A DNA stretch of 5,018 bases. Source: a virus (taxonomy: Duplodnaviria > Heunggongvirae > Uroviricota > Caudoviricetes). The stretch is taken from the IMG/VR virus record IMGVR_UViG_2563366829_000009, positions 1-5,018 of that record. The stretch is one strand, 5' to 3'. Every line of letters begins with the position of its first letter. Position 1 is the first letter of the stretch. A program made the position numbers and the translations under genes. The notes under the pieces were generated by a model. It saw only the letters and a list, made by a program, of their open reading frames with translations, ran no database searches and was not told the origin of the DNA. This document shows positions 1-5,018 of this stretch, piece after piece.

Positions 1-202
1 CGATAAAGCGTGACTACATCAGTGTCATGCCCAAACCAGACGGGTTAACGGCAGCAAAGAACCTTGCAGAGGCGTTCGAGCATTATAACGAATGGCATCC
101 GCATAGTGCACTGGGTTATCGCTCGCCACGGGAATATCTACGGCAGCAAGCCAGTAATGGGTTAAGTGATAACAGGTGTCTGGAAATATAGGGGCAAATC
201 CA
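1..202 (+). mobile_element. IS2-like insertion sequence, right end (partial; element continues beyond window start)
   Basis: Frame-3 translation of 3-191 gives a DDE-transposase C-terminus (...[36 protein letters not shown]) that I recognise as IS2 OrfB. The sequence after the stop (GGGGCAAATCCA, ending at 202) matches my memory of the IS2 right terminus. The minus-strand reading frame of the neighbouring gene changes character exactly at 202/203. The target-site duplication cannot be checked because the left end is outside the window. Confidence 0.78.
3..191 (+). CDS. insD: IS2-family transposase OrfB (InsD-like), C-terminal 62 codons, 5'-partial
   Basis: Open frame from the window edge to TAG at 189-191. 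The translation [62 protein letters not shown] is a typical IS3-family/IS2 transposase C-terminal tail. Confidence 0.75.
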
Positions 203-433
203 GCCGATAAGAATTGATGCTGCTGGTTTGTAAAAGAGAAGGCCGCAAAGAAAGCTGAGCATCGACAGGAGCACCCGGCGACGGATGGGGTACTCTACTG
301 CAGAGGTAACAAAAATTACCACCCCAGCCAAAGCCCCTAAAGCAACCTCCGGAGGGACACCTGCAATAACTGCAGCAAGAGAACCAAAACTAAGCAACTG
401 ATTTAATTGCTCATTTGTTACTTGAGCAGACAT
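203..433 (-). pseudogene. Small hydrophobic membrane protein gene (holin-like or lysogenic-conversion-like), N-terminal 77 codons native, truncated and fused into IS2
   Basis: ATG at 433-431 is preceded by AGGAGA (rc of 438-443) at 5-nt spacing. Residues 1-77 (MSAQVTNEQLNQLLSFGSLAAVIAGVPPEVALGALAGVVIFVTSAVEYPIRRRVLLSMLSFLCGLLFYKPAASILIG) contain two or three hydrophobic helices. Codon 78 onward (WICPYISRH..., down to 116) lies inside the IS2 terminus, so the 105-aa ORF in the track is a fusion artefact. The original C-terminus is lost or displaced. Confidence 0.55.
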
Positions 434-714
434 ACTTTCTCCTGTTTACTATCTATAAGCCAGTCAATTATTGATGACTAAACCCGCATAGCAAACCATA
501 TATGAATCATTATTGTTCCATATCATATATCTCAATAAAAGTACTAATGATTTTACAGAACGAGCCAGCAGAGTGGGGGCAGTTGTACAGGAACCATAGA
601 CTTAATTTTGTATTTAATAATGCTATGGTGTAATAAACCTGAACATGTATTTAAAATACGTACTGATTCATGATAGAATTCAAAGATAACTTTTCACCAA
701 CTCCGTTTTTGATA

Positions 715-741
715 CCCGCAATATTTTGCGGGCTTTTTTTT
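715..741 (+). terminator. Intrinsic terminator-like hairpin (CCCGCAA-TATT-TTGCGGG) followed by a T8 run, oriented for plus-strand transcription; may act bidirectionally
   Basis: 7-bp GC-rich stem 715-721/726-732 with a 4-nt loop, then T734-T741. The T-run overlaps the tailspike stop codon (rc of 740-742 = TAA). On the minus strand the hairpin is followed only by UAUCAAAAAC, so termination of the tailspike transcript here would be weak. Confidence 0.55.
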
Positions 742-3700
742 AACGTTCTTCCAGAGACTGAACCCGCTCTTTTATCTTATCCATTTCTCTGCGCTGCCAT
801 GCTGCCTCGATATAGAATAAGAGATCAGGTCTGACCCCCCATCTAGATCCTGCTGGCGTTATTTCAACGCGCTCAATGATGTCTTCTATTACCATCACTG
901 GATTATCATCATCATCAACAATGATGCTCCCGTCATTATCAGTCAGCGGCATTTCCCTTTGGCCAGTAATGACGTCATCATATACTGCGGGATAATCGTC
1001 ATAGCAAAGAAAGGCATAGCGGCATGTTGTGCTTTCTTCTTCCATGAGTCCGTGAGAAATAAGAACATCACGAAGTTGCTGCGCGATTACACCATGATGT
1101 ATCCTCGCCCCTTCTTCCCCCTTTATAGCGACAGCGTTCAGCCATTTATAAGCGATATACCTGACGTCACCCCAGGCATCCAGCAATGCTTCGTCAGGAG
1201 AGACCGGCTCTGTCTTTAATGTTCCGTCACTGGTAACCACAGGATTGGAGCCAAGATAAACTGTCGAGAACCTGTTTCCCGGACCACCAAGAGCATTTAC
1301 ATTATCAAGATAAGGTTTAACATCTCCGTTCTCAAAAAGATGTTCGAGTGCGTTATATACCGCGCGACGTGGAGTACTGCTTCCGGAACCATGCAACGTT
1401 ATCATTGCACCATCTGCTGAAGACGTTGTTTCACCGCCGCTAACGATTAATCTCTGAGCGGTAACATCATCAGACGGTACTTTCTTCGCAATAATGGCGT
1501 AATTACCCTCAAGTTTGACTTCCGCGCGAACTTGTCCTGATGTACCTGCATGGACAGTCAGTGACTGGACGGCAACATCATCTGTGAAATCAACGGGTAC
1601 AGGAACCGTCCTCACGCCTGACGTCGACATAAAAGTAGGAAGCGTTCTGTTAGGAGTGGCTCCGTAGACAAAATCCCTTGAAACAAATTCTTCCTGTTTA
1701 ATTTTCACCCTGAAACAATACAAATCAGCCGGGTGACCATCGTGAACATAAGGATATTTTCTGTTGTTATCCCCTATGCTCCATGGGTTTAGAAAGTCTT
1801 CCCCACCGAAAATGTAGTACAGCCAGTTGTCTTTGATACAAACTGAACCAACACCAACCGCAGAGTTAACTATTCCGCCCTGATAAATCTGATCAGTAAC
1901 ATTAACCCACTCTACATTATCCAGACTCCACTCATTGACGTTAACTCTGGTCATAAATGTTCTTGGATAATTTCCTGCATAACGGTTATCAGGTTCTCCT
2001 CCTTCCCACTCACCAAATGCGCGCTCACTGCCAAAAATAATCAGCTCATCGCCAACTTTGGCAAAAGGAAGGTTTGAGTGATGAACATTATTTGGGAAGC
2101 GAAGAGAATTCCATGATGTACCTAAATCAGAGCTTCTGTGCAATGAACTACCGGGTTGAGTACTTAATGTCCCCCTGGTCGTCAGATACAGAATGCCATC
2201 ATAATATTTTACACATGGCTCAGATGCATTCGCCTCATATTCTACAGGTATGCGTCTGCGAACAAAGCTACCAGGAGAACCGAAAGCATCAGAGAAATAG
2301 AGTATCCCAAGCTCGCGTGGACCAATATCACCATTATGGTAGCCAACAGCAAAACTGTTATCGCTAATCGTCGCAAAACTGTGAATCTCAGTAACAGGAG
2401 TGCTTCCGTCAACAAAAGAAGGAATAGTTCCAAGACTGGTTTTTCTCCATGGTGACGAGTGAAATGATGTGCCAAAACTCCAGTATCTACCCTCGTTATT
2501 CTGATCCACATCCTGGGTATTTTGCGTCGTAACTGTAAAGGTATTTTTATCAATAACAGTAGTCACCGTCATATTCCCGGTAACACCTGTAACACCAGAG
2601 TTTGAGAAGTTGACAAAATCACCAGCAAATAATCCGTGATCAGTAATGCGAATATAAGCGACTTGCTGATTTGCTGCTTTCGTTATACCACCATAAACGC
2701 GAAGGCTGCGACTCATTGGGCGATCCCACAACTCTGCAACCTGCAGTTTATTTCCTCTCACGGTCCGCGTCTCAATTACAGCAAAAAGGCGATTTCTGAC
2801 AACCCCCATACTCATGCAGTGATAGTTAACTGTGGGATAGTTTTCATGTAAATCTGTAAGCCATTCCGGCGTTGTCCAGGTCTTCCCGTCATCTCCTGAG
2901 CGAACCCATGCAACATGGAGGTTATTTACACCATGGCGGTCTCCAGCCATAAAAGGCGCATAGATGACATTGTCATATACAAACGTTTTATCCTGCGTCC
3001 AGGCGTTGTACCACGGTGTATCTGTAATTTTAAATAACTCTCCCTGGATAAAATCTTCAGAAGCATAAAAAAGAGGCTGGCCCGGTATTCTCTCAAATAA
3101 AAAACGAGCATTTTTAAATCGACTGACATCCGGAAGAGTTGATACTTTAAAAGTAAGCCCTAATCCGTCAATTTTATAACCTGGAGATGAGGCTTCAAGG
3201 CACGCGCTTATTGCAGTGGAATCGTCATTTATACCATCACCAACAGCTCCAAAATCTTTGGGGCTAATAGCATCACGCATTTTATCCTGGAACGTTCGGT
3301 ACACAGCCCCAGAACCATACTGAATAAACCAACCAAAACCACCAACAACTCCGGCGATTGCAGCATCGACATAATTACGCATTGAGCGATTATTTACAGC
3401 GTCCTGCTCAAATGATGGATCTGCAAGGTTAGAAATTTTGTTTTGCTTTGCATCGTAATATTTTGCAAGCAAAGATGGTTTCATCAATGCACGTCTGAAC
3501 CACCCAAAACATTGCTGGATCAGCATCGTCAGGTAGTCAAAGGCATCTTCATGCACTTCGGGGAAAAATTTTCCCTGATTGCGAAGGTCTGTGTCCTGCA
3601 CTACATCAAGCACACGATCTATCGTAATTCGCCATCCAGTAGCAAGCGGAGACGGAAGAACCACAGAACCGCCACTATAAGTGCCCGCCCCAGTTACCGT

Positions 3701-3859
3701 ATAACCGGTATCCAGGACCAATTCTGTTACGTTCCCGTTCAGGTCAGACACCTGAACAACCAGGTCTGATTTTCTGAAAATTCGAAAAGTATACGGAAAC
3801 GATGTCGTAACGCCGTTACCGGTGTATTCGTTGTGGTCAACTTCGGTTGAGACCGTCAT
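740..3859 (-). CDS. Phage tailspike protein, endosialidase-like (endo-N-acetylneuraminidase family candidate) with conserved N-terminal virion-anchor domain and C-terminal intramolecular chaperone domain
   Basis: Intact 1039-codon ORF. ATG at 3859-3857 with GGAGA (rc of 3866-3870) 7 nt upstream. N-terminus MTVSTEVDHNEYTGNGVTTSFPYTFRIF is a conserved tailspike particle-binding module, recalled as epsilon15-like. Two Asp-box (S-x-D-x-G-x-T/S-W) motifs: SGDDGKTW (aa 321-328, nt 2876-2899) and SSDLGTSW (aa 576-583, nt 2111-2134). The blocks VNYHCMSMGV, ITKAANQ and KYYDGILYLTTRGT resemble endosialidases of K1 coliphages as I recall them. C-terminal 162 aa carry the Ser-Lys dyad spacing (S877...K882) and ARIHHGVIAQQ typical of self-cleaving chaperone domains. 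Confidence 0.8.
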   Translation of the reverse strand: MTVSTEVDHNEYTGNGVTTSFPYTFRIFRKSDLVVQVSDLNGNVTELVLDTGYTVTGAGTYSGGSVVLPSPLATGWRITIDRVLDVVQDTDLRNQGKFFPEVHEDAFDYLTMLIQQCFGWFRRALMKPSLLAKYYDAKQNKISNLADPSFEQDAVNNRSMRNYVDAAIAGVVGGFGWFIQYGSGAVYRTFQDKMRDAISPKDFGAVGDGINDDSTAISACLEASSPGYKIDGLGLTFKVSTLPDVSRFKNARFLFERIPGQPLFYASEDFIQGELFKITDTPWYNAWTQDKTFVYDNVIYAPFMAGDRHGVNNLHVAWVRSGDDGKTWTTPEWLTDLHENYPTVNYHCMSMGVVRNRLFAVIETRTVRGNKLQVAELWDRPMSRSLRVYGGITKAANQQVAYIRITDHGLFAGDFVNFSNSGVTGVTGNMTVTTVIDKNTFTVTTQNTQDVDQNNEGRYWSFGTSFHSSPWRKTSLGTIPSFVDGSTPVTEIHSFATISDNSFAVGYHNGDIGPRELGILYFSDAFGSPGSFVRRRIPVEYEANASEPCVKYYDGILYLTTRGTLSTQPGSSLHRSSDLGTSWNSLRFPNNVHHSNLPFAKVGDELIIFGSERAFGEWEGGEPDNRYAGNYPRTFMTRVNVNEWSLDNVEWVNVTDQIYQGGIVNSAVGVGSVCIKDNWLYYIFGGEDFLNPWSIGDNNRKYPYVHDGHPADLYCFRVKIKQEEFVSRDFVYGATPNRTLPTFMSTSGVRTVPVPVDFTDDVAVQSLTVHAGTSGQVRAEVKLEGNYAIIAKKVPSDDVTAQRLIVSGGETTSSADGAMITLHGSGSSTPRRAVYNALEHLFENGDVKPYLDNVNALGGPGNRFSTVYLGSNPVVTSDGTLKTEPVSPDEALLDAWGDVRYIAYKWLNAVAIKGEEGARIHHGVIAQQLRDVLISHGLMEEESTTCRYAFLCYDDYPAVYDDVITGQREMPLTDNDGSIIVDDDDNPVMVIEDIIERVEITPAGSRWGVRPDLLFYIEAAWQRREMDKIKERVQSLEER
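743..1231 (-). other. C-terminal intramolecular chaperone / autoproteolytic domain (peptidase S74-like) of the tailspike; predicted self-cleavage between Ser877 and Asp878
   Basis: Sequence ...GSNPVVTS|DGTLKTEP... with Ser877 (codon 1229-1231) and Lys882 (codon 1214-1216) five residues apart, followed by DAWGDVRYIAYKWLNAVAIKGEEGARIHHGVIAQQLRDV. This matches the established Ser/Lys dyad architecture of the C-terminal chaperone domains of endosialidases and related tail fibres. Confidence 0.65.
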
Positions 3860-4054
3860 GTTAAATCTCCAGATAGTCGCAGCACCCGTTGCGCCGCATA
3901 TCTGGTTATTCTATTACCTGAAAAACCATATATGGATAAAAAGACTATAAATACCAATAGATATTACCTTTCGGGTAATTTGCAAAACGTGCTGGATAGC
4001 AAACAAATTATTTGTTACTGTATAAACATACAGTTATTGCATGGAGAAGATAAG
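3860..4054. promoter_or_regulatory. AT-rich divergent intergenic region between the tailspike gene (minus) and the small ORF (plus); contains a palindrome and candidate promoter elements
   Basis: 195 bp between two divergent start codons, each with a good RBS. Contains palindrome ATTACC-TTTCG-GGTAAT (3963-3979) immediately followed by the self-complementary hexamer TTGCAA (3980-3985), and TATAAA at 4021-4026 preceded by TG at 4019-4020. No hexamer pair with canonical 17-bp spacing was found, so the promoter assignment is tentative. Confidence 0.4.
3963..3979. repeat. Palindrome ATTACC-N5-GGTAAT (candidate operator or small hairpin), copy A
   Basis: Perfect 6-bp arms with a 5-nt spacer. The same half-site recurs at 3914-3919, 4321-4326 (within an inverted GGTAATTGCAAA motif) and as TTTACC-N5-GGTAAA at 4343-4359. 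Confidence 0.45.
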
Positions 4055-4312
4055 ATGCAGCAGTATCACTATCCACTGGAAGACGGATTTACCGAAAGGA
4101 TTCACACGCCGGGAGGCGTCAGGTCACTGGTGGAGGGATCGCACTTGATGAAATTACTCCGGGATCTCGATAAGGATGGATTTAATGTCGATGGCCCACT
4201 TGCCGAACTGACTGCACTGATTAACTACGTCACCAGCTCACAGATGTCTATGCAGGATCTGCAAACACATCTCGACTATTGTGCCGAACAATTACGAAAA
4301 CAAACCAGATAA
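4055..4312 (+). CDS. Hypothetical small acidic protein (85 aa), function unknown
   Basis: ATG at 4055 preceded by GGAG (4043-4046) at 8-nt spacing; stop TAA at 4310-4312. The ORF track start at 3932 adds 41 low-complexity codons from the AT-rich promoter region with no RBS, so the shorter start is preferred. Product MQQYHYPLEDGFTERIHTPGGVRSLVEGSHLMKLLRDLDKDGFNVDGPLAELTALINYVTSSQMSMQDLQTHLDYCAEQLRKQTR has about 14 D/E against 8 K/R and no hydrophobic segment; I do not recognise a family. Confidence 0.5.
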   Translation: MQQYHYPLEDGFTERIHTPGGVRSLVEGSHLMKLLRDLDKDGFNVDGPLAELTALINYVTSSQMSMQDLQTHLDYCAEQLRKQTR

Positions 4313-4330
4313 GGTTTGCAATTACCAAAT

Positions 4331-4374
4331 GGAGTGCTTATATTTACCTTTGCGGTAAATTTACATCGCACTCC
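4331..4374. repeat. Nested inverted repeat: GGAGTGC (4331-4337) / GCACTCC (4368-4374) enclosing palindrome TTTACC-TTTGC-GGTAAA (4343-4359), copy C of the ATTACC/GGTAAT-type motif
   Basis: Read directly from the sequence; lies 19-60 nt downstream of the small-ORF stop codon. Confidence 0.45.
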
Positions 4375-4385
4375 TCTTGTGCCAT

Positions 4386-4437
4386 AGTAATCGGGCACTG
4401 GCAAAATCCAGTGCCGGGATTGGTCTCCCGGATTACT
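4386..4437 (+). other. Compound stem-loop / imperfect long palindrome (candidate structured RNA element or protein-binding site)
   Basis: AGTAATC (4386-4392) pairs with GATTACT (4431-4437). Inside it is a perfect 8-bp hairpin GGCACTGG-CAAAAT-CCAGTGCC (4394-4415) and a second short hairpin GGGA-TTGGTC-TCCC (4416-4429). Confidence 0.35.
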
Positions 4438-4452
4438 ACAGAGGCACATATG

Positions 4453-4471
4453 CCGCATAAGCGGTTTTTTT
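4453..4471 (+). terminator. Weak intrinsic-terminator candidate (CCGC-ATAA-GCGG followed by T7) downstream of the small ORF
   Basis: 4-bp GC stem 4453-4456/4461-4464 followed by T4465-T4471. The stem is short, so confidence is low; it may act together with the upstream compound hairpin. Confidence 0.3.
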
Positions 4472-4566
4472 ATGTGTAAAGCGCACCTATTCTATGGTGG
4501 GCTGTGTGGGGGCACCGAAAGGTGCGCCGGGTTCCTTTGTAGCCGGTAAGACCAACTCTGCACAGT

Positions 4567-4599
4567 TCACCACCATCTGATTGGTCTCAGCGGTGGTGA
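4567..4599. repeat. Inverted repeat TCACCACC-N17-GGTGGTGA upstream of the antirepressor start (candidate operator)
   Basis: 8-bp perfect arms at 4567-4574 and 4592-4599. A second overlapping inverted repeat AGACCAA (4549-4555) / TTGGTCT (4581-4587) is also present. Located 27-60 nt upstream of ATG 4626. Confidence 0.4.
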
Positions 4600-4625
4600 T
4601 TAACCTAACTACAAAGGTGATCGCT

Positions 4626-4793
4626 ATGAATACCAAACCTTCCATCTTTTCCTTTGAGTCATCCTGCCAGATCCGTATGTTCATGATTGACGGAGAACCT
4701 TGGTTTGTCACCAAAGATGTGTGCAATGCTTTGAATATTGATGTTACACAAGCGAGAAAACTTGATAAAAAAGGCTGGAACAAAAAGGGGCTG
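4626..4793 (+). pseudogene. Bro-N-domain phage antirepressor-like gene, N-terminal 56 codons only; truncated by IS3-family insertion
   Basis: ATG 4626 preceded by AAGGTG (4614-4619) at 6-nt spacing. Translation MNTKPSIFSFESSCQIRMFMIDGEPWFVTKDVCNALNIDVTQARKLDKK... fits the Bro-N / antirepressor N-terminal pattern (F-x-F...IR...DGEPWF-x-x-KDV...L). The frame runs straight into the IS terminus TGAACCGCCCC at 4794, whose first three bases supply the stop codon. Confidence 0.6.
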
Positions 4794-5018
4794 TGAACCG
4801 CCCCGGGTTTCCTGGAGAGTGTTTTATCTGTGAACTCAGGCTGCCAGATCATCGTTTCCGATGGAAGCATAATAAGCTTTTTCTGCTTCTGCCGGAGGAG
4901 TATGGCCCAGCCTTTCCAGCAATCGTCGATTGTTATACCAGTCCACCCACGTGAGTGTGGCCAGTTCCACTTCTGCACGGTTTTTCCAGCTCTTACGGTG
5001 TATTACCTCCGCTTTGTA
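4794..5018 (-). mobile_element. IS3-family insertion sequence (IS629/IS3411-like), terminal inverted repeat and 3' end of transposase; element continues beyond window end
   Basis: Terminus TGAACCGCCCCGGGTTTCCTGGAGAG at 4794 is a characteristic IS3-family end (TG...CA). The minus-strand frame 5018-4836 encodes a DDE-transposase C-terminus. The target-site duplication cannot be checked within the window. Confidence 0.75.
4836..5018 (-). CDS. IS3-family transposase OrfB, C-terminal 60 codons, 5'-partial
   Basis: Reverse-complement translation YKAEVIHRKSWKNRAEVELATLTWVDWYNNRRLLERLGHTPPAEAEKAYYASIGNDDLAA* is in frame with the window edge; stop TGA is rc of 4836-4838. It is absent from the ORF track only because it has no in-window start codon. 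Confidence 0.8.
   Translation of the reverse strand, partial: YKAEVIHRKSWKNRAEVELATLTWVDWYNNRRLLERLGHTPPAEAEKAYYASIGNDDLAA

Follow-up and report, generated by a model that had tools for sequence, protein, structure and literature searches.

Genes and RNA elements of the locus

The window, by which we mean the whole stretch of 5,018 nucleotides analysed here, represents part of an epsilon15-like (Uetakevirus) prophage of E. coli, cut by IS elements. A 36-kb sister prophage in E. coli MS 196-1, which shows about two mismatches relative to positions 1-4794 of the window, is free of the IS insertion in the Bro-N gene. The small open reading frame at 4055-4312 (+ strand) encodes a protein of 85 aa that matched chain E of PDB entry 5D50, 'Anti-repressor protein' (E=4.1e-47), as well as phrog_450, and the SPC32N homologue of this protein is annotated as ant. 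Judged by this homology, the reading frame is an antirepressor gene of the SPC32H type, ant, and the Rep protein is the predicted binding partner of its product. The sister prophage encodes an HTH protein with homology to SPC32H Rep (5D50_A, E=3.5e-42), the rep locus lying outside the 5-kb window, and, divergently from rep, a small Cro-like protein of 76 aa, which matches phrog_35 'transcriptional repressor'. In addition, the prophage encodes further small regulators, including a PerC-family activator and an AlpA-like HTH protein. An initial sequence-only reading of the window had considered the 85-aa protein itself as a possible binder of the palindromes described below. This is not likely, and the protein was rejected as a DNA-binding regulator because the match to 5D50_E identifies it as Ant, which binds Rep; SPC32H Ant targets the repressor protein, not the operator DNA (PMC9638917).

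A LexA (SOS) box that is conserved in all relatives is located upstream of ant at 4018-4033 (unstranded; CTGTATAAACATACAG, CTGT-N8-ACAG) and overlaps a candidate ant promoter consisting of TGGATA (3993-3998), a 17-bp spacer and TACTGT (4016-4021). In SPC32N the box is altered to ...AAAG, a change that we take to be the known constitutive-Ant mutation of Kim and Ryu from 2013. The same authors reportedly found that an antirepressor, and not RecA-stimulated cleavage, inactivates the SPC32H-type repressor.

Downstream of ant, the window contains an isrK-type sRNA with its terminator (4395-4471, + strand; Rfam RF01394, 74.7 bits compared to a gathering score of 50), followed by a C4 antisense RNA (4490-4577, + strand; Rfam RF01695, 78.6 bits compared to a gathering score of 45), so that both members of the module, in this order, exceed the Rfam gathering thresholds. 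The isrK element includes a b1 box (4418-4427) and an a1 box (4436-4444), C4 carries the loops a' (CCUUUGUAG, 4534-4542) and b' (AGACCAA, 4549-4555), and a second C4 target (4579-4617, + strand) is composed of a b2 box (GATTGGTCTC, 4579-4588) and an a2 box (CTACAAAGG, 4609-4617). Seven bases of the b boxes (GATTGGTCTC at 4418 and 4579) are complementary to AGACCAA at 4549-4555, and CCTTTGTAG at 4534-4542 is complementary to both a boxes, CTACAGAGG (4436) and CTACAAAGG (4609), the second of which, a2, overlaps AAAGGTGA, the ribosome-binding site of the Bro-N gene. This pairing of C4 with its targets was derived from direct complementarity of the loops, ViennaRNA duplexfold having returned a long duplex that could not be interpreted. 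The 10-bp repeat GATTGGTCTC, which had been noticed at 4418-4427 and 4579-4588 in connection with the operator motifs, is indeed present at both positions, but as the b1/b2 target of C4 it is set aside as a protein site. The module ends with the 5' part of a Bro-N antirepressor gene (4626-4794, + strand; Pfam Bro-N at the cut-off), which is cut by an IS3-family insertion at 4795, the breakpoint being defined by comparison with the intact sister prophage. The intact Bro-N protein has an Ant-like C-terminal domain that is 42% identical to Ant, and it matches antirepressor families in PHROGs.

Two palindromes and the family to which they belong

Two palindromes of 17 bp lie on either side of ant. 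The first, putative operator 1 (3963-3979, unstranded), reads ATTACC-TTTCG-GGTAAT (ATTACCTTTCGGGTAAT) and is located in the divergent tailspike/ant intergenic region, while the second, putative operator 2 (4343-4359, unstranded), reads TTTACC-TTTGC-GGTAAA (TTTACCTTTGCGGTAAA) and directly abuts the -35 element of the candidate isrK promoter. Both had been proposed from sequence at these positions and were confirmed as exact matches far above chance, since TTACC-N5-GGTAA with at most one mismatch was found twice in the window compared to 0.13 expected, and none of 200 shuffles reached two. On a position weight matrix made from 37 independent sites, operators 1 and 2 score 23.1 and 23.0 bits, respectively, well above the shuffled background, in which the 95th percentile of the best score per window is 10.2. 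Of 74 symmetrised sites, 70 have A or T at the middle position of the spacer. As had also been claimed, the half-site hexamer ATTACC as such occurs above chance, with eight copies in the window relative to 2.75 expected (1 of 200 shuffles reached eight), and four of these copies fall within 3912-4374.

The two palindromes had originally been grouped with additional half-sites and with TTGCAA motifs into one candidate operator set, and it is only the palindromes that stand. For these the operator reading is right in kind, since they behave like sites of a dyad-symmetric DNA-binding regulator and are members of the phage-wide, intergenic and rep-centred family described below. The first ATTACC is present, at 3913-3918 rather than 3914-3919, and TTTGCAATTACC is present at 4315-4326, but the weight-matrix scan excludes both as half-operators: the isolated ATTACC at 3913 reaches -1.9 bits, and the ATTACC at 4321 is outside the twelve best-scoring positions of the window, the remaining positions all being below -1.9 bits. 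Because these scores are low compared to the 23 bits of the palindromes, the isolated copies are not considered sites, and the conserved block around ATTACC 3913 more plausibly represents the spacer and -10 element of a leftward tailspike promoter (TCCATA-17-TAGAAT). TTGCAA was likewise dropped as an enriched motif, its frequency (three observed compared to 2.4 expected, with 94 of 200 shuffles reaching three) matching the shuffled background. The TTGCAA copy at 3980 is a moderately conserved -35-like hexamer beside operator 1, and no convincing conserved -10 partner for it was found on either strand.

When all interrupted palindromes with 5-mer arms and spacers of N0 to N10 were counted without bias in each genome, TTACC-N5-GGTAA ranked first in all three genomes enumerated. 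The sister prophage of 36 kb has 13 exact copies, SPC32N has 10 and VB_ST_E15 has 11, where about 0.037 would be expected in each. Allowing one mismatch, the total for the E. coli prophage is 16 sites, whereas about 19 kb of flanking chromosome yielded a single one-mismatch match. All ten exact sites of SPC32N are intergenic, compared to an intergenic share of 6.8% of its genome. Three sites are found upstream and three downstream of SPC32N rep, a pattern that is alike in the E. coli prophage, and five to six sites lie within about 900 bp of rep. Centre-to-centre spacings of 17-18 bp and 62 bp recur among the sites. The proximal site of the PL-like promoter, like that of the replication promoter, lies directly against the -10 element and over the start point, and a distal site is found 62 bp away, a classical layout for a repressor. 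Across six genera the TTACC/GGTAA half-sites are invariant and the spacer length is fixed, while the spacers themselves vary (TTTCG, TTTCA, TTACA, TTGCG, CTTAA and others).

Operator 1 keeps a constant distance to the ant ATG (-91/-92) in about 65 distinct upstream sequences. Its position is equally constant in Salmonella, Citrobacter, Erwinia, Pseudocitrobacter and Scandinavium; the cross-genus footprint was obtained from a GTDB genome scan with Ant (5 loci). In an alignment of nine sequences from six genera, operator 1 is one of five conserved islands. Phylogenetic conservation favoured the palindromes, whose positions are kept across the six genera. Measured from the predicted start points, operator 1 is centred at about -57 for ant and about -70 for the tailspike gene, and it overlaps neither of the best-conserved candidate core promoters of these genes. 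Its effect there may be repression, an auxiliary role or even activation, and we can only infer which promoter it controls.

In epsilon15-like loci, 66 of 66 isrK copies have operator 2 at a constant distance of 50 nt upstream. The site is lacking in ant loci that have no isrK, and it does not precede isrK in VT2-Sakai, APSE-7 and Ayreon either, which are phages with other repressors. The right-hand site goes with the isrK-C4-Bro-N module, not with the small reading frame. The bracketing of this reading frame by sites, which had been taken as a meaningful arrangement, is real in the window but incidental, since ant loci without isrK have the upstream site only. A promoter scan placed a candidate isrK promoter, P_b, immediately downstream of operator 2 (4360-4388, + strand; -35 TTTACA at 4360-4365, 17-bp spacer, TG-extended -10 CATAGT at 4383-4388). 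Its predicted start at about 4395 equals the isrK 5' end, its elements are conserved in 34 distinct contexts, and its -10 element lines up with the TATAGT that precedes isrK in APSE-7. In Gifsy-1, isrK has its own promoter, which drives the whole operon (PMC4825925). The same scan gave a candidate upstream promoter, P_a (4316-4344, + strand; TTGCAA-17-TATATT), the -10 element of which abuts operator 2 in a layout as at the PL-like and replication promoters of the prophage. P_a is less secure than P_b because it is conserved in E. coli ant-adjacent copies only. A class-II-type activator would also fit the location of operator 2, the centre of which is near -44 of the isrK promoter.

Candidate ligands and proposed wiring

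The distribution of the sites around rep and at the early promoters suggests that the palindromes are, with a probability of roughly 80%, operators of the epsilon15/SPC32H-type Rep, the immunity repressor of the prophage itself. Rep reportedly binds palindromic sites as a tetramer (PMC9638917); we infer from sequence that it is the binder here and that its binding is repressive. The Cro-like protein probably shares the Rep sites. In a full-text search of the literature, which was made without the primary Rep and epsilon15 genome papers, no statement of an operator sequence was found.

It appears unlikely that another phage regulator, i.e. the 76-aa Cro-like protein alone, the PerC-family protein or the AlpA-like HTH protein, binds these sites, mainly for activation or the lytic programme. 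The presence of several further small regulators in the prophage, the match of the Cro-like protein to the phrog_35 repressors and the location of operators 1 and 2 upstream of or adjacent to -35 elements, a typical place for activators, are consistent with such a role, but the density of sites is highest on both sides of rep, the start points of early promoters are covered by proximal sites in the manner of a repressor, and it is Rep that has been documented on palindromic operators (PMC9638917). Moreover, since a repressor and a Cro-like protein usually have their operators in common, this explanation is largely a refinement of binding by Rep.

We consider it very unlikely that the palindromes work as RNA hairpins that, for example, terminate, stabilise or direct the processing of the ant, isrK or tailspike transcripts, instead of as DNA bound by a protein. 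Folding did place operator 2 at the tip of an extended hairpin (GGAGTGC ... GCACTCC, 4331-4374, unstranded), the 44 nt of which are predicted to fold stably on either strand (+ strand, -17.6 kcal/mol, z = -5.3; - strand, -20.2 kcal/mol, z = -7.0). Its arms pair over a perfect 18 bp in O157 typing phage 9, and it is located just past the ant stop codon, a likely place for a terminator. Site 1 alone, however, is weak (-5 kcal/mol, z = -1.3), so that the regulatory-RNA hairpins envisaged in the sequence-only reading fall away for site 1 and are only a secondary possibility for site 2. As rho-independent terminators both palindromes were ruled out, because the terminator scan reported neither of them and neither is followed by a U-tract, the site 2 hairpin being followed by UCUUGUG. 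In addition, isrK copies that are not beside ant keep operator 2 but lack the outer left arm of the hairpin, which indicates that the long hairpin is specific to this junction and not a property of the motif. Covariation support for the site 2 hairpin, seen in the differing outer arms of Citrobacter and Erwinia, was weakened by the isrK copies with other left flanks. Across the family, sites are found upstream of promoters in both orientations, and the outermost position of the 17-mer shows no covariation and is not kept complementary (e.g., GTTACC...GGTAAT and ATTACC...GGTAAC), which argues for protein recognition over base pairing. Finally, a chance pile-up of an AT-rich hexamer in AT-rich intergenic DNA, with which the AT-rich region and the individually unremarkable ATTACC (3913, 4321) and TTGCAA hexamers would agree, is refuted for the two full palindromes by their excess over shuffled windows (two compared to 0.13 expected, reached in 0 of 200 shuffles), the 13 prophage copies (0.037 expected) and the conserved positions across six genera, and it stands only for the extra half-sites.

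If Rep is the ligand, approximately 13-16 Rep sites would be positioned at the head of most transcription units of the prophage, with operator 1 between the divergent tailspike and ant genes and operator 2 overlapping the -10 element and start of P_a and abutting the -35 element of the conserved isrK promoter. In the lysogen, Rep on these operators would silence the tailspike and/or ant unit together with the second antirepressor module, while LexA, through its box at 4018-4033, and the C4 antisense RNA would represent independent extra locks on the two antirepressors. Upon SOS induction, Ant would be made, Rep would be removed and both operators would be de-repressed. Tentatively, Rep may in this way directly gate both of its antirepressors, ant by way of operator 1 and the isrK-C4-Bro-N/Ant fusion by way of operator 2, in a toggle over LexA and C4, perhaps with looping, or else activate isrK. 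In the former case, Rep and the antirepressors would constitute a double-negative (toggle) loop layered on LexA and C4 control, and, with 380 bp or about 36 helical turns between the two operators, one Rep tetramer might hold both at once and loop out the ant gene. In the latter case, Rep sitting at about -44 would turn on the isrK promoter and thereby keep up C4 RNA in lysogens.

Comparison with known immunity systems

The proposed operator wiring at the two antirepressor modules is ordinary phage immunity and no new system, and the kind of mechanism is already known. What the sites provide is a testable consensus, A-TTACC-N5-GGTAA-T with A/T at the centre, for the operators of the immunity repressor in epsilon15-like (Uetakevirus) prophages. 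Such prophages are frequently met in E. coli and Salmonella, and their tailspikes include serotype-converting and capsule-specific ones; the consensus can be used in annotation and in the prediction of immunity groups and induction behaviour. The closest parallel is the Rep/Ant/LexA switch of SPC32H/SPC32N, with which the window prophage shares an Ant that is about 88% identical, a homologous Rep (E=3.5e-42), the gene order of tailspike followed by ant on the opposite strand, a LexA box in the same place and TTACC-N5-GGTAA at -91 from the ant ATG. In contrast to SPC32H/SPC32N, the prophage resides in E. coli, has an endosialidase tailspike, carries the additional isrK-C4-Bro-N module with an operator of its own downstream of ant, and has been damaged by IS3-family insertions.

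The second module resembles immI of P1/P7, which comprises the C1-controlled operator Op51, the c4 antisense RNA, icd and ant, as well as isrK-orf45-anrP of Gifsy-1. In all of these the C4 antisense RNA is on the same transcript as its targets, a and b boxes are duplicated and the second pair masks the antirepressor gene's ribosome-binding site, there is a leader of the isrK type that includes a terminator, and a promoter lies immediately upstream with a site for the main repressor, which in the window is a candidate. A mobile isrK-C4-antirepressor cassette thus appears to have been fitted with the host phage's own operator, in parallel to C1 and Op51 at P1 immI. Unlike P1 immI, where the C1 operator is asymmetric and 17 bp long, the window has a symmetric palindrome of the epsilon15 type, and, differing from both P1/P7 and Gifsy-1, its antirepressor is a Bro-N domain fused to an Ant-like Rep-binding domain and is truncated.

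A dozen or more scattered sites for one repressor, heading many transcription units beyond a single immunity region, are likewise known for C1 of P1 and for the 'stoperators' of gp71 in mycobacteriophage L5. The repressor sites of P1 and L5 are asymmetric, and L5 stoperators are found within transcription units and depend on orientation, whereas the epsilon15-type sites are symmetric and intergenic. Similar to OR/OL of lambda, the sites are dyad-symmetric over 17 bp with conserved half-sites and a variable centre, occur as pairs or triplets around the repressor gene and over the -10 element and start of early promoters, and are probably common to the repressor and a Cro-like protein. In contrast to lambda, the half-site sequence is another one, the spacings are 17-18 bp and 62 bp, sites are also present at late, tailspike and antirepressor units, and the SPC32H-type repressor owes its inactivation to an antirepressor instead of to RecA-stimulated cleavage (PMC9638917).

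Distribution of the TTACC-N5-GGTAA palindrome and its likely binder

By sequence comparison, the window (5018 bp) represents part of an epsilon15-like (genus Uetakevirus) E. coli prophage, and its positions 1-4794 show only about 2 base differences from the prophage beside guaA in E. coli MS 196-1. The prophage is probably K1-capsule specific, since its 1039-aa tailspike gene (740-3859, minus strand) carries the RefSeq annotation endosialidase. Next to the tailspike gene, on the other strand, comes a small gene, an order common to the Salmonella phages SPC32N and VB_ST_E15 and also found in the E. coli phages PAS61, HEMP4 and O157 typing phage 9. This small gene, an 85-aa ORF (4055-4312), is a homologue of the crystallised SPC32H antirepressor Ant (PDB 5D50 chain E, E=4.1e-47), and its SPC32N counterpart is annotated as ant. 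IS3-family elements lie at both ends; the left one (1-190, ending near 190) splits a putative holin gene (116-433, minus strand), and the right one, from 4795, interrupts a Bro-N gene.

A whole-genome scan of relatives demonstrated that TTACC-N5-GGTAA is not confined to the region of the window. When all interrupted palindromes of 5-mers with a spacer between 0 and 10 bp long were enumerated, this motif ranked first by a wide margin: the 36-kb sister prophage (the intact, near-identical relative in MS 196-1) has 13 copies, SPC32N 10 and VB_ST_E15 11, compared to about 0.037 expected in each. All 10 exact sites of SPC32N are intergenic (the intergenic share of this genome is 6.8%). Sites are most closely packed near rep: in SPC32N three lie upstream of the gene and another three separate it from the early-left operon, and those of the E. 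coli prophage are arranged likewise. Further copies were found 5' of the replication genes, the terminase gene, the head operon and accessory modules, and the integrase gene is likewise preceded by a site with one mismatch. About 19 kb of flanking chromosome contained a single hit, again with one mismatch. At the PL-like and replication promoters the proximal site adjoins the -10 element and spans the start point, and the distal site lies 62 bp upstream. Among the compared loci, pairs 62 bp apart from centre to centre occur in L007 (NZ_CP146681.1 1384296-1384374 and 1387394-1387472) and in L002 (2642-2720 and 5010-5164), and other pairs are spaced by 17-18 bp. In the replication-side promoter, the operator spacer contains the Shine-Dalgarno sequence of the gene. 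Such an arrangement would fit a tetramer that binds cooperatively or by looping.

The prophage encodes a helix-turn-helix protein homologous to SPC32H Rep (5D50_A, E=3.5e-42), a repressor summarized in a later paper as a tetramer that binds palindromic sites and is dismantled by tetrameric Ant (PMC9638917). Taken together with the distribution of the motif and the promoter layout, this homology and this description suggest that TTACC-N5-GGTAA is best read as the putative operator of Rep, which a divergently encoded 76-aa Cro-like protein (phrog_35) probably uses as well. That a phage regulator other than Rep binds the palindromes is unlikely, since both the rep-centred distribution and the layout spanning promoter start points favour Rep.

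The two palindromes of the window

The sequence-only reading had correctly placed the two full palindromes, ATTACCTTTCGGGTAAT at 3963-3979 (site 1, operator 1) and TTTACCTTTGCGGTAAA at 4343-4359 (site 2, operator 2), and had offered hairpins in a regulatory RNA as one explanation for them. This explanation is not supported for site 1, which folds weakly (-5 kcal/mol, z = -1.3), and neither palindrome was called as a terminator. Site 2, in turn, forms the tip of a stable 44-nt hairpin at 4331-4374 (GGAGTGC...GCACTCC; -17.6 kcal/mol as RNA; z = -5.3 and -7.0 for the plus and minus strands, respectively), the arms of which pair perfectly over 18 bp in O157 typing phage 9. However, the outer left arm is missing in isrK copies that do not adjoin ant, indicating that the hairpin is a feature of the ant-isrK junction and not a property of the motif; it could be the 3' end of ant or a terminator, or a by-product of palindrome symmetrisation. 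A chance origin of the two full palindromes is excluded, as two matches to TTACC-N5-GGTAA with at most one mismatch occur in the window compared to 0.13 expected, a number reached in 0 of 200 shuffles.

A weight matrix derived from 37 sites in related genomes, both window sites being left out, gave each full palindrome a score of 23 bits. The smaller elements of the proposed operator set fared differently. The bare hexamer ATTACC is indeed over-represented in the window (8 observed, 2.75 expected), and the first isolated copy exists, one base away from the position reported, at 3913-3918; as a site it scored only -1.9, and the copy at 4321 fell outside the twelve best positions of the window. 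TTGCAA showed no enrichment. In phylogenetic footprinting, site 1 was retained across ant loci and site 2 across isrK-bearing epsilon15-like loci.

Site 1 between the ant and tailspike genes

In virtually all of the roughly 65 different sequences that precede ant, site 1 lies at -91/-92 relative to the ATG; the only departures are two contigs that are truncated and one locus interrupted by an IS. Its occurrence extends to Citrobacter braakii, C. werkmanii, Candidatus Erwinia dacicola, Pseudocitrobacter faecalis and Scandinavium. An alignment of nine sequences shows five conserved islands, of which site 1 is one, with invariant half-sites and a 5-bp spacer that is free to vary. The remaining islands are the tailspike ribosome-binding site and start, TCTATTACC...TATATGRAT, TGCTGGATA, and a LexA box together with the ribosome-binding site of ant that comes after it. 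The near-consensus LexA (SOS) box CTGTATAAACATACAG (4018-4033) is kept in all relatives, across six genera, and overlaps the best-conserved core promoter candidate for ant, TGGATA-17-TACTGT (3993-3998 and 4016-4021). In SPC32N the box reads ...AAAG (CAG>AAG change), and Kim and Ryu reportedly found in 2013 that this mutation renders Ant constitutive. In the IMG/VR locus L015 an IS is inserted within the box.

A candidate dedicated tailspike promoter, TCCATA-17-TAGAAT, is found on the minus strand within the conserved block 3908-3938 (TCTATTACC...TATATGRAT), which also accounts for the conserved ATTACC at 3913. A G+C-rich stretch, in part palindromic in the Salmonella relatives, lies between this block and the start of the tailspike gene. 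Relatives without the isrK module (L002 19014-19064, L004 1953-1997) carry a G+C-rich hairpin 3' of ant, which on the minus strand is a typical intrinsic terminator closing the structural operon, implying that the tailspike gene is not simply transcribed by late-operon read-through. Relative to the candidate promoters, operator 1 is centred at about -57 for ant and about -70 for the tailspike gene, a position resembling that of the distal operators of the phage's early promoters. A weak leftward promoter with TTGCAA as -35 and operator 1 as spacer is possible. Operator 1 may govern the ant unit, the tailspike unit or both, and its effect may be repressing, auxiliary or even activating.

Site 2, the isrK module and known systems

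Site 2 is missing from ant loci without the isrK module (SPC32N, PAS61 and many more) and was found in every locus with it. In epsilon15-like loci it accompanies 66 of 66 isrK copies (65 exact) at a constant 50 nt, a count that takes in a second, convergent isrK-C4 copy of the sister prophage, and this linkage holds in 34 different sequence contexts, among which there are at least three unrelated left flanks. The palindrome was not found at the isrK/C4 modules of the unrelated phages VT2-Sakai, APSE-7 and Ayreon, whose homology to the window starts at about the isrK 5' end. Because site 2 tracks the isrK module and not ant, we assign it, as a putative operator in epsilon15-like phages, to the isrK promoter rather than pairing it with site 1, and the bracketing of the small ORF, initially regarded as meaningful, is thus incidental.

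The candidate isrK promoter consists of TTTACA (4360-4365), directly after operator 2, a 17-bp spacer and a TG-extended CATAGT (4383-4388), which aligns with TATAGT 5' of isrK in APSE-7; its predicted start at about 4395 is the first base of the isrK model. An upstream promoter-like element, TTGCAA-17-TATATT (4316-4344), is conserved only in E. coli, and its -10 adjoins operator 2, as at the early promoters. The second isrK-C4 copy of the sister prophage (L006 25148-25334, minus strand, and 25371-25387), located before an ORF6N/Rha-type module, has an identical operator and TTTACA promoter cassette. Such isrK-C4 copies recur in many IMG/VR relatives beside differing left flanks, pointing to a mobile operator-promoter-isrK-C4 cassette.

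Rfam models identified isrK at 4395-4471 (74.7 bits) and C4 antisense RNA at 4490-4577 (78.6 bits). The C4 loops, CCUUUGUAG (4534-4542) and AGACCAA (4549-4555), are complementary to two box sets, GATTGGTCTC with CTACAGAGG within isrK and GATTGGTCTC with CTACAAAGG just 5' of and across the ribosome-binding site of the Bro-N gene (4626). The 10-bp repeat GATTGGTCTC, previously listed alongside the operator motifs, was confirmed at 4418 and 4579, but since both copies are complementary to a C4 loop it represents the b1/b2 target that C4 recognizes; P1 immI and the Gifsy-1 isrK operon (PMC4825925) are organized in this way. The Bro-N gene (4626-4794) is interrupted after codon 56 by the IS3-family insertion. 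The intact copy in the sister prophage (L006 20767-21459) encodes a Bro-N domain fused to a C-terminal domain 42% identical to Ant, so that the locus encodes two tandem antirepressors. It would originally have had two Rep-directed antirepressors under separate controls, LexA versus C4 RNA and operator 2, the second of which was destroyed by the IS in the window.

Rep bound at operator 2 would block the upstream TTGCAA-17-TATATT promoter and very probably also the isrK promoter, which would silence the isrK-C4-Bro-N operon, much as C1 acts via Op51 to silence its operon in P1 immI. A putative Rep operator at both antirepressor modules implies that Rep and its antirepressors negatively control one another. 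This arrangement, together with an explicit operator consensus for epsilon15-like phages, may be of modest novelty. All components of the locus are of known kinds, namely an SPC32H-type Rep/Ant/LexA switch, a P1/Gifsy-type isrK-C4 antisense module, and genome-dispersed dyad-symmetric repressor operators similar to those of C1 in P1.
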